The notes under the pieces are model-generated. The model saw nothing but the letters and a program-made list of their open reading frames with translations. It was not told where the DNA came from and searched no databases. From the NCBI RefSeq assembly GCF_056712565.1, contig NZ_CM160072.1: a stretch of 64,000 nt of DNA, one strand, 5' to 3'. This document shows positions 32,994-33,506 of the stretch, one piece after another (positions within the stretch are counted from its first letter, which is position 1; the number at the start of each line of letters is the position of its first letter). Made by a program: the position numbers and the translations under genes.

Positions 32994-33014
32994 TCTCTTT
33001 TGAGCTTTAAGCTG

Positions 33015-33047
33015 AAAATGGCGCTGTAAAAGGCGCCATTTTTTTAT
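33015..33047 (+). terminator. Rho-independent terminator of the fdnGHI operon
   Basis: aaaatggcgc-loop-gcgccatttt followed by a T run, just after the fdnI stop. Confidence 0.7.
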
Positions 33048-33049
33048 TG

Positions 33050-33180
33050 TAGACAACGTGCACTTTGTTCATGCCGGATGCGGCGTGAACGCCTTATCCG
33101 GCCTACAAACCGTTCAAATCCAATAGATTGCAGTGAACGTGTAGACCTGATAAGCGTAGCGCATCGGGCAATGTTGCGTT
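33050..33180. repeat. REP/BIME cluster
   Basis: Repeated gccggatgcggcgtgaacgccttatccggcctaca and gcctgataagcgtagcgcatc palindromic units. Confidence 0.6.
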
Positions 33181-33221
33181 TGTCATCAGTTTCAAATGGC
33201 GCTTTATAAGGTGCCATTTTT

Positions 33222-33506
33222 TTATTGCGTAACCAGACGGCGCAGTCGCGACACATCCACCGTTTTTTCCGCCTCTGCCAGACTCCAGGCATTTTGCAGA
33301 TTCAGCCACATTTGCGGCGAACTGCCGATCACCACGGAAAGTTTTATTGCCATTTCTGGCGTCAAAGCTGCTTTTCCGGTCAGCAATCGGCTTGCCGTTG
33401 AGGGCGCAATTTCCATTGCTCTGGCAAACTCGCGCAGGCTGACATTAAGTTCGTCCAGTGATTCCTGAATAATGTCCCCCGGGCGGGGATGATTGGCCAT
33501 TTTCAT
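33222..33506 (-). CDS. yddM: HigA-like antitoxin (XRE-family helix-turn-helix)
   Basis: 94-aa ORF; abuts the upstream toxin-like ORF at a shared position (33506). Confidence 0.6.

Follow-up and report, generated by a model that had tools for sequence, protein, structure and literature searches.

Two copies of an ancestral terminator stem-loop bracket a BIME-1 element between fdnI and higA in Escherichia coli

Analysis of the region between fdnI and higA in a stretch of 64,000 nucleotides (64 kb, hereafter the window) showed that the two terminator-like hairpins found there, h1 and h2, are copies of one ancestral fdnGHI/higA terminator stem-loop and that they bracket a complete BIME-1 element. 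Most probably, BIME-1 inserted and the target stem-loop was duplicated in full, with unequal recombination coming later. The parts of the fdnI-higA locus (a terminator, a BIME-1 and a toxin-antitoxin pair) are ordinary, and the locus is a clear example of what seems to be a general duplication of the target, defined by structure, that remains where BIME-1 has inserted.

A direct-repeat search aligned copy 1 (33016-33049, AAATGGCGCTGTAAAAGGCGCCATTTTTTTATTG) with copy 2 (33194-33227, AAATGGCGCTTTATAAGGTGCCATTTTTTTATTG) at 31 of 34 positions (91%), with a start-to-start spacing of 178 bp, and nowhere else in the window does a direct repeat within 600 bp reach 24 nt. The first-pass annotation had described two near-identical terminator-like hairpins and had made this description depend on an alignment of the copies beyond chance. 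The description is confirmed: the identity extends through the loop, the match is unique in the 64 kb and both copies carry a T7 on the + strand. Indeed, h1 and h2 are both GC-rich hairpins placed directly before a U tract on the + strand, for which the terminator scan found stems of 12 and 11 pairs, respectively, and T-rich tails. Their RNA folds reach -17.5 and -13.9 kcal/mol (z -4.75 and -3.69), and no shuffle folded as well as h1 or h2 (0/200). On the - strand, h1 still gives a good fold (-14.1 kcal/mol), followed by UUUUCAGC, and is acceptable as a terminator; h2 is weak on this strand (-8.2 kcal/mol, an A.C mismatch and 3 U after the stem).

The h1 hairpin occupies the position of the ancestral fdnGHI terminator, ~20 nt past the stop codon of fdnI (Table 1). 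The neighbours, fdnI and a toxin-antitoxin pair, had been correctly named from the start, as Pfam and RefSeq agree; the pair is of the type II HigBA kind, a HigB-like toxin ORF lying beside an HTH antitoxin ORF with a 1-nt overlap. Copy 2 had also been said to overlap the 3' end of higA. This is accurate for its last 6 nt, which cover the stop codon (33222-33224) and the last Gln codon (33225-33227), but the hairpin stem itself (33194-33219) is outside the CDS. The fdnI-higA stretch is 100% identical to that of E. coli ATCC 11775. A search of the region with Rfam returned nothing above the gathering thresholds; since all matches (naRNA4, ES036) are sub-threshold and REP-derived, no distinct RNA family is present.

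Table 1. Features of the fdnI-higA region, in window coordinates
Feature	Position	Strand	Basis
fdnI, final gene of fdnGHI, formate dehydrogenase-N gamma subunit, cytochrome b561 family	32340..32993	+	ORF; Pfam Ni_hydr_CYTB (E=3.6e-23); RefSeq annotation of identical DNA
h1, left terminator copy: stem 33015-33024 / 33033-33042, T run to 33045	33015..33045	+	Repeat search; terminator scan; fold
Direct-repeat copy 1, 34 nt as detected	33016..33049	+	Repeat search; comparison with K-12, E. albertii and L009; family alignment
Complete BIME-1 / RIP element (REPIN-like), 151 nt	~33043..33193	+	nhmmer profile, model positions 4-153; alignment with other copies
BIME-1 left terminal motif, consensus TCAGATTGTTGACAAAGTGCGCTTTGTTCAT, inverted-repeat partner of the right motif	33043..33072	+	Family alignment; element boundaries
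Y-type REP (palindromic unit), CTAC end	33073..33106	+	Inverted repeat; exact pattern match; sub-threshold Rfam naRNA4 (E=5.6e-5)
BIME-1 L linker, 34 nt, IHF-site-like core AATCCAATAGATTG	33107..33140	+	Conserved alignment block; sub-threshold Rfam ES036 at 33107-33148; BIME-1 definition (PMC3333891)
Second REP, GTAG start, in the opposite orientation to the Y REP, presumed Z1 from the architecture	33141..33170	+	Sequence; invariant alignment block
BIME-1 right terminal motif, consensus ATTTTGCGTTTGTCATCAGTCTC	33171..33193	+	Family alignment; pattern recovery from metagenomes
h2, right terminator copy: stem-loop 33194-33219, original T7 33217-33223	33194..33223	+	Repeat search; terminator scan; fold
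higA (yddM), antitoxin, stop codon inside the h2 T run	33222..33506	-	ORF; Pfam HTH_3 (E=7.6e-10); RefSeq 'HigA family addiction module antitoxin'
higB-like toxin, intact	33506..33784	-	ORF; Pfam HigB-like_toxin (E=3.8e-17)

The first-pass annotation had placed a 'cluster of REP units' between the hairpins. REPs are present, but there are exactly two of them, inverted, and they belong to one BIME-1 (Table 1). BIME-1 has been described as a Y and a Z1 REP separated by a long L linker with an IHF site, ~140 bp in all (PMC3333891; PMC1187871). A family alignment was built from the fdnI-higA copy and the pitA-uspB, yjiR-rpn, gloC-aspC and fepA-entD copies, and this set defines the limits of the similarity; a profile derived from it matches 151 nt at fdnI-higA. 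The Y REP and the second REP form an inverted pair of invariant blocks across these five copies, and the 34-nt linker is conserved across BIME-1 copies, whereas the linker of the window's other BIME is 12 nt long. The core of the linker resembles the IHF consensus (AATCCAATAGATTG here, AATTCAATAGATTG in other copies) and is a candidate IHF site. The termini of the element are mutually inverted (TCAGATTGTTGACAAA / TTTGTCATCAGTCTC), and the pattern TTGCGTTTGTMATCMKTYTC, taken from the right terminal motif, fished BIME-1 copies from metagenome contigs.

A 144-nt query (33050-33193) found at least 38 matching places in every E. coli genome, as is proper to a dispersed family. The best matches elsewhere in genomes that lack the element at fdnI-higA cover 99-100% of the query (from position 1 or 3 to 144) at 85-88% identity. 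Because the query matches elsewhere from end to end, the 'spacers' beside the REPs are parts of the dispersed element; a homology of these spacers to the fdnI and higA flanks, predicted by tandem duplication, was accordingly dropped, the spacers being the BIME-1 terminal motifs. As single-stranded DNA, 33012-33224 folds into a single long hairpin, with h1 and h2 paired to each other (-45.9 kcal/mol, z -5.89); a REP doublet folding as one hairpin is also the mark of a REPIN. Judging from this modelled fold, such a structure may favour the gain and loss of units.

The locus was surveyed in 5,426 complete E. coli genomes. In brief, its alleles include: (i) the window allele, with two hairpins and one BIME-1, in 2,069 genomes (~38%); (ii) an empty allele, exactly 178 bp shorter, in which one hairpin (AAAATGGCGCTTTAAGAAGCGCCATTTTTT) abuts the higA stop codon, in 2,049 genomes (~38%); (iii) a K-12-type allele in ~945 genomes (~17%), with two tandem 178-bp units and three hairpins, hence two BIME-1 with a hairpin between them, the count being of genomes that match the K-12 internal junction at 99% identity or more; and (iv) an empty allele bearing IS200C, inserted in the T run, in ~5% of genomes. 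The comparison with the same intergenic region in other E. coli, suggested by the first-pass annotation, has thus yielded single-hairpin, BIME-1-free alleles. At least one unit is present at fdnI-higA in ~2,935 genomes (54% of 5,426), one variant lacks 18 bp within the Y REP, and the counts of matching places suggest that some genomes carry up to four units. Tandem Repeats Finder (TRF) gave a period of 178 for K-12-type DNA (2.2 copies). The hairpin joined to the BIME-1 left end occurs at a median of one place per genome among the 5,426, at fdnI-higA only, which rules out a donor locus for the hairpin or the spacers elsewhere in E. coli. The hairpin of the empty allele is missed by a simple terminator scan, its stem absorbing four T's.

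To establish the polarity of this polymorphism, 80 fdnI loci of other species were compared. Thirteen of them in Citrobacter, and that of Escherichia sp. MOD1-EC7003, have one hairpin, which belongs to the same family (AATGGCGC...GCGCCATT followed by a T run) and lies at the same offset from fdnI. Convergent higA directly follows this single hairpin in Citrobacter sp. FP75 and NCU1; since these strains have the order fdnI-hairpin-higA, the shared terminator is older than Escherichia. Apart from E. coli itself, two hairpins with a BIME-1 were confined, among the 80 loci, to E. albertii and a divergent Escherichia lineage (L009). The outgroups being single-hairpin, the duplication is therefore derived and coincides with BIME-1. 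The hairpin of the empty allele (loop TTTAAGAA) is that of MOD1-EC7003 and differs from both h1 and h2, and the E. coli empty allele looks like a never-occupied, ancestral state rather than a recent deletion. The h1-type loop, TGTAA[A/G]AG, and the h2-type loop, TTTATAA[G/A], are each kept between E. coli and E. albertii; this conservation points to one old duplication event that would have arrived with BIME-1.

A comparable but independent event is seen at the orthologous fdnI terminator of Citrobacter amalonaticus. The hairpin repeat there is 22 nt long and perfect, and it encloses 140 nt of an element that has BIME-1-like termini and a perfect IHF consensus but lacks REPs. At this terminator, further strains of the C. 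amalonaticus group have a single hairpin. No second copy of the 140-nt element was present among the collected loci.

Part of the likeness between the two hairpins in the window is secondary. In K-12, in L004 and in E. albertii, h1 is followed by TTTTCATATTG or TTTTCAGATTG, i.e. by the BIME-1 left end (consensus TCAGATTG); in the window it is followed by TTTTTTTATTG, which is identical to the h2 tail. The left end of the element reads CATATTG in K-12, CAGATTG in E. albertii and TTTATTG in the window. A change from CATATTG to TTTATTG in the window lineage, presumably by two substitutions or by a short conversion from h2, would have restored a T7 to h1, and the upstream U tract appears to have been repaired in this way. 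It is because of this change, which gave h1 a full T7, that both window copies look like complete terminators, and because TTTATTG lengthens the match that the repeat appears to be 34 nt rather than ~27 nt long. The original duplicated target within copy 1 is ~33016-33042, and 33043-33049 is the BIME-1 left end. Consistently, the terminator scan accepts both hairpins of the window allele but, of those in the K-12 form, the last one alone. The exact window form of h1 and left end is present in ~433 genomes.

The same footprint is found at other BIME-1 loci. A census of E. coli genomes and a metagenome scan gave 16 distinct full-length copies with both flanks, a small census in which the metagenome sample is biased by the search pattern; the metagenome scan for the right motif led from 120 stretches to 12 distinct loci, and a scan of viral contigs gave 2 loci, one of them new. 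A direct repeat that folds as a hairpin abuts both ends of the element (gap 0-2 nt) at 7 of the 16 loci: fdnI-higA (~27 nt), pitA-uspB (26 nt), gloC-aspC (19 nt), yfeX-pbp4b (29 nt), lpdA-yacH (20 nt), L099 (23 nt, identical copies) and L181 (18-20 nt). Six of these seven score 14-25, against a maximum of 12 among 240 mismatched-flank controls. The repeat is absent at the remaining 9 of the 16 copies, and also at a seventeenth locus obtained later. L099, with its perfect repeat, is not an E. coli locus. The repeats are locus-specific, each built from its own hairpin, and the duplication is not of fixed length: it spans 18-29 nt and in each case equals the local hairpin. The asymmetric loops and stems indicate that the flanking copies are direct and not inverted; the mutual pairing of h1 and h2 had also suggested a fold-back (inverted) duplication, but this was rejected, as the asymmetries at pitA-uspB, gloC-aspC, L099 and fdnI-higA fit direct copies better.

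All five repeat loci tested in E. coli (5/5) are polymorphic for presence and absence, and the empty allele consists of one hairpin and the original T run. Besides fdnI-higA, the element occupies pitA-uspB in 1,941 E. coli genomes, gloC-aspC in 2,811, yfeX-pbp4b in 1,400 and lpdA-yacH in 493. These five loci therefore show what is expected of a target duplication, a repeat abutting both ends of the element and empty sites with a single copy. For two BIME-1 copies without flanking repeats, no empty allele was seen; one of them, fepA-entD, is occupied in 5,345 of the 5,426 genomes. Furthermore, 1.71 Mb of collected sequence was searched in the reverse sense, for direct repeats of the hairpin type with a spacing of 60-450 bp; all those that enclose 139-155 nt enclose BIME-1 or an element with the same termini, the C. 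amalonaticus repeat being one of them.

These observations bear on several other origins. The hairpin might first have been duplicated in tandem by replication slippage and BIME-1 might have inserted later between the copies. Slippage at palindromes is common and the K-12 allele shows that copy number at the locus can change, but such a two-step course would have to be repeated at at least 7 independent loci with the element touching both copies at 0-2 nt each time, no BIME-free allele with adjacent hairpins was found at five loci in spread samples of the 5,426 genomes, and the 1.71-Mb reverse search contained no element-free hairpin duplicate; this origin is unlikely.

The first-pass annotation had proposed a 'duplicated terminator module' perhaps generated by REP-mediated rearrangement, taken here as ectopic recombination between REPs that delivered a second terminator copy together with the REPs. 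Of this proposal, the duplication is indeed tied to a REP-containing element, but the rearrangement is unsupported. REPs are abundant substrates for recombination, and the unit can be amplified in tandem, as in the K-12 allele. However, the non-REP parts of the unit occur at fdnI-higA only (median 1 place per genome) and the hairpin is locus-specific, so that there is no donor; no second fdnI-type hairpin lies beside a REP in the 5,426 genomes; the junctions are at the BIME-1 termini and not within the REPs; and other loci bear the same footprint built from their own hairpins. Such a rearrangement is very unlikely. An even slimmer chance attaches to separate, unrelated terminators of fdnGHI and higBA that stood around BIME-1 and were made alike by gene conversion. 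The window h1 tail, TTTTTTTATTG, equals the h2 tail and is possibly the product of a short conversion, but fdnI and higA share one hairpin both in Citrobacter and in the empty E. coli allele, none of the 80 fdnI loci is an outgroup with two different hairpins around a BIME-free spacer, and conversion leaves unexplained both the same footprints elsewhere and the repeats that end exactly at the element ends. Finally, a chance likeness of two ordinary GC-stem/T-run terminators, whose architecture is generic, is refuted by the identity of 31 of 34 positions including the loop, by the absence of any other such repeat in the 64 kb and by the 178-bp period conserved in K-12.

Insertion of BIME-1 with duplication of the target stem-loop, the preferred reading, could have proceeded as follows. 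The convergent fdnGHI (+) and higBA (-) would originally have had one common terminator made of an A-tract, a hairpin and a T-tract. The 151-bp BIME-1 would have landed directly 3' of the stem, separating it from the T run and leaving the stem-loop (~27 nt, AAATGGCGC...GCGCCATTT) on both sides as a target-site duplication of hairpin length; the upstream A-tract would have stayed with the left copy, and the original T run and higA stop codon with the right copy. Unequal recombination or slippage between the direct copies would then add units, giving the K-12 allele with its two units and three hairpins, and the same recombination could in principle remove units precisely. As to the reaction itself, the likeliest course would be a staggered cut at both feet of the hairpin or cruciform when extruded, after which the element would be joined in and the gaps filled. 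A duplication that is exactly as long as the palindrome, and hence variable (18-29 nt), would follow because both feet are adjacent in the folded structure; this specific cleavage is much less certain than the insertion with duplication, and we regard it as less likely than not.

More generally, it is possible, as a tentative extension to the family, that BIME-1, like the Citrobacter elements sharing its termini, enters new sites through a structure-directed reaction at the foot of an extruded terminator hairpin and duplicates the entire stem-loop. If so, the length of the footprint would be set by the secondary structure of the target and not by the enzyme, intrinsic terminators would be favoured as targets, the duplicated hairpins would later promote both precise loss and amplification in tandem, and this would be the first in-genome footprint of REP/BIME/REPIN insertion. 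Several points speak against insertion with duplication. All occupied alleles are old polymorphisms, and at four of the five polymorphic loci the polarity is presumed from the fdnI outgroups by analogy. Nine of the 16 BIME-1 copies lack the flanking repeat, and IS200C leaves no duplication at the same hairpins. The loop of one repeat copy is often unlike that of the empty-site hairpin, which simple fill-in does not predict unless the copies have long diverged. To our knowledge, no known transposase leaves duplications of variable length such as the 18-29 bp seen here. The REP-linked Y1/HUH enzymes (RAYT, IS200/IS605) leave no target duplication (PMC2817692).

The insertion is predicted to affect transcription. 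It separates the A-tract, now at h1, from the T-tract, now at h2, so that the authentic U tract would be on the distal hairpin for each direction, and a shared bidirectional terminator would be split into two half-competent copies ~180 bp apart. In the window allele, where the T tract is again full, h1 would terminate fdnGHI, and h2 would act as a backstop that halts + strand read-through running antisense into higA. The higBA transcripts would pass the weak - strand h2, cross BIME-1 and end at the - strand h1, so that their 3' UTR would contain the REPs. The fdnGHI transcripts of the K-12 form probably continue across BIME-1 as far as the last hairpin. The 3' UTRs are thus expected to vary between strains, and the convergent transcripts of fdnGHI and higBA to overlap. 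A REP can act on a 3' end by stabilising or attenuating it. Where REPs lie between convergent genes, they have also been proposed to be bidirectional terminators or stabilisers (bioRxiv 10.64898/2026.03.23.713779).

How REPs, BIMEs and REPINs reach new sites has been an open question since the 1980s, and recent papers still call the mechanism unknown. A reproducible footprint, with the whole hairpin duplicated and the element between stem and T run, leads to testable predictions on RAYT or host enzymes, and also explains which BIME-1 copies are polymorphic for presence and absence. In the literature searched, to which the primary BIME papers of the 1990s (Bachellier 1997; Boccard & Prentki 1993; Gilson 1991) do not belong, BIME-1 is nowhere said to be flanked by a terminator or hairpin in duplicate, nor is a footprint of insertion given for REPINs; earlier authors may have noted the flanking repeats of BIME-1, which we consider less likely than not. 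The lone paper naming both fdnI and yddM deals with large amplifications in the LTEE and is not relevant here.

Among known systems, the element has the architecture, the sequence family and the 3'-end position between convergent genes of BIME-1/RIP/RIB. Passages in PMC1187871 (citing Bachellier 1997) and PMC3333891 indicate that the presence or absence of BIME-1 among isolates was already known, and changes in BIME copy number are also known (PMC3333891; PMC1187871). However, this literature describes BIME-1 as single copies and makes no mention of a duplicated target, whereas the fdnI-higA copy is bracketed by a duplicated stem-loop and its unit is tandem in K-12. REPINs, associated with RAYT, likewise consist of two inverted REPs that form a long hairpin, and tandem REPIN clusters that include flanking sequence occur in P. 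fluorescens (PMC3116915). No insertion footprint or target preference has been reported for REPINs, whose mechanism is stated to be unknown; the BIME-1 at fdnI-higA, in contrast, has a hairpin footprint. With MITEs, BIME-1 shares terminal inverted repeats, abutting direct repeats of the target and single-copy empty sites; the MITE duplication is normally short and fixed by the transposase, whereas that of BIME-1 is 18-29 bp long, variable and equal to the complete hairpin. IS200C (IS200/IS605) uses the same terminator hairpins, being found in the T run of empty fdnI-higA and yfeX-pbp4b alleles, but, unlike BIME-1, it inserts without hairpin duplication. The transposase family of IS200/IS605 is related to RAYT. 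In other phyla, REPs split the palindromes in which they lie, so that one arm stands on either side of the REP (Di Nocera et al. 2013, PMC3733652); the targets are palindromic there too, but BIME-1 here has a complete hairpin copy on each side and not split arms. Finally, the bidirectional intrinsic terminators found between convergent genes are matched by the empty allele, whose A-tract, hairpin and T-tract are common to fdnI and higA, whereas after the insertion the A-tract and the T-tract are, unlike in such a terminator, on different hairpin copies ~180 bp apart.

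In Escherichia coli, BIME-1 copies with flanking hairpin repeats were polymorphic for presence or absence at all five loci tested (fdnI-higA, pitA-uspB, gloC-aspC, yfeX-pbp4b and lpdA-yacH). No empty allele was found at the two tested loci whose BIME-1 lacks such repeats, namely fepA-entD (L089/L097) and yjiR-rpn (L087/L157), and the fepA-entD copy is occupied in 98.5% of the 5,426 genomes. A further BIME-1 with hairpin repeats is located on a metagenome contig, L099, where the two 23-nt copies (AAACGCCGGAGCAATCCGGCGTT) are perfectly identical. The flanking sequence on this contig has no match in any E. 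coli genome, and the element may have inserted recently, in a different enterobacterial species.

At fdnI-higA, the target hairpin is itself palindromic, so that its two direct copies can equally be read as a pair of inverted repeats, 27 nt long and 81% complementary. The hairpin-BIME-1-hairpin block (window 33012-33224) is predicted to fold as one 213-nt single-stranded DNA hairpin (-45.9 kcal/mol, z -5.9).

Features located in the window and in the compared loci
Feature	Sequence	Coordinates	Remarks
Second BIME	Window	17826-17900	3' of a + strand ORF
higB-like toxin gene	Window	33506-33784	Intact
IS200C insertion	L003 (E. coli EFF60)	480-1215	
IS200C insertion	L214 (E. coli YL3)	180-915	
140-nt element with flanking hairpin repeats	L011 (Citrobacter amalonaticus)	3178-3361	Orthologous fdnI terminator
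BIME-1 with hairpin repeats	L099 (metagenome contig)	11760-11960	

The orthologous fdnI terminator of C. amalonaticus carries a 140-nt element with a perfect 22-nt hairpin repeat (AGGCGCTACTCCGGTAGCGCCT) on both sides and with BIME-1-like inverted termini (CAGACTGCTGACAAAG ... GTTTGTCATCACTCTC), while related strains (L013, L016) have a single hairpin. This element contains no REPs, includes a putative IHF site matching the consensus perfectly (AATCAATCAATTG), and has no second copy among the loci compared. The mobile unit may be defined by its termini rather than by REPs.

The second BIME of the window, a BIME-2-like unit, consists of a Y REP, a short 12-nt linker and a GTAG-headed REP, with no visible flanking direct repeat. 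The one-unit allele of L004 (E. coli OkiPb01690) has lost 18 bp within its Y REP (about 530-545), between short GTGAA / TGAAA repeats, and with them one palindrome arm. At gloC-aspC, the GTAG-headed REP of BIME-1 is split by IS621, of the IS110 family (L092, E. coli MS6193, about 940-1060). A 231-bp tandem duplication with a strong terminator hairpin (AAAAAACCGACGCAAAGTCGGTTTTTTT) was also observed (L095, 11338-11650; L205, 857-1170) and is unrelated to BIME-1. The contig of a MAG labelled Citrobacter sp. (L008; FdnI 100% identical) stops precisely where fdnI does on its 3' side, which probably reflects an assembly break at the repeat; judging from the E. coli-identical fdnI, the organism label looks wrong.

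As regards the higB-like toxin (window gene compared with L001, 778-972, and L002, 1691-1837), a frameshift is annotated in strain Ecol_542. K-12-type genomes, in which yddM and adhP are only 146 bp apart, lack the toxin, and their antitoxin is therefore an orphan.

Finally, IS200C occurs in empty alleles at two BIME-1 target sites, in the T run directly 3' of the terminator hairpin: at fdnI-higA, where about 5% of genomes carry it, and at yfeX-pbp4b. The two insertions agree in orientation and in their junctions (...TTTTT|GTGCACAG ... GGATATTTA|TTATT), and neither is accompanied by a duplicated hairpin. Since IS200C sits at two BIME-1 target sites, this Y1-transposase element and BIME-1 have landing sites in common.
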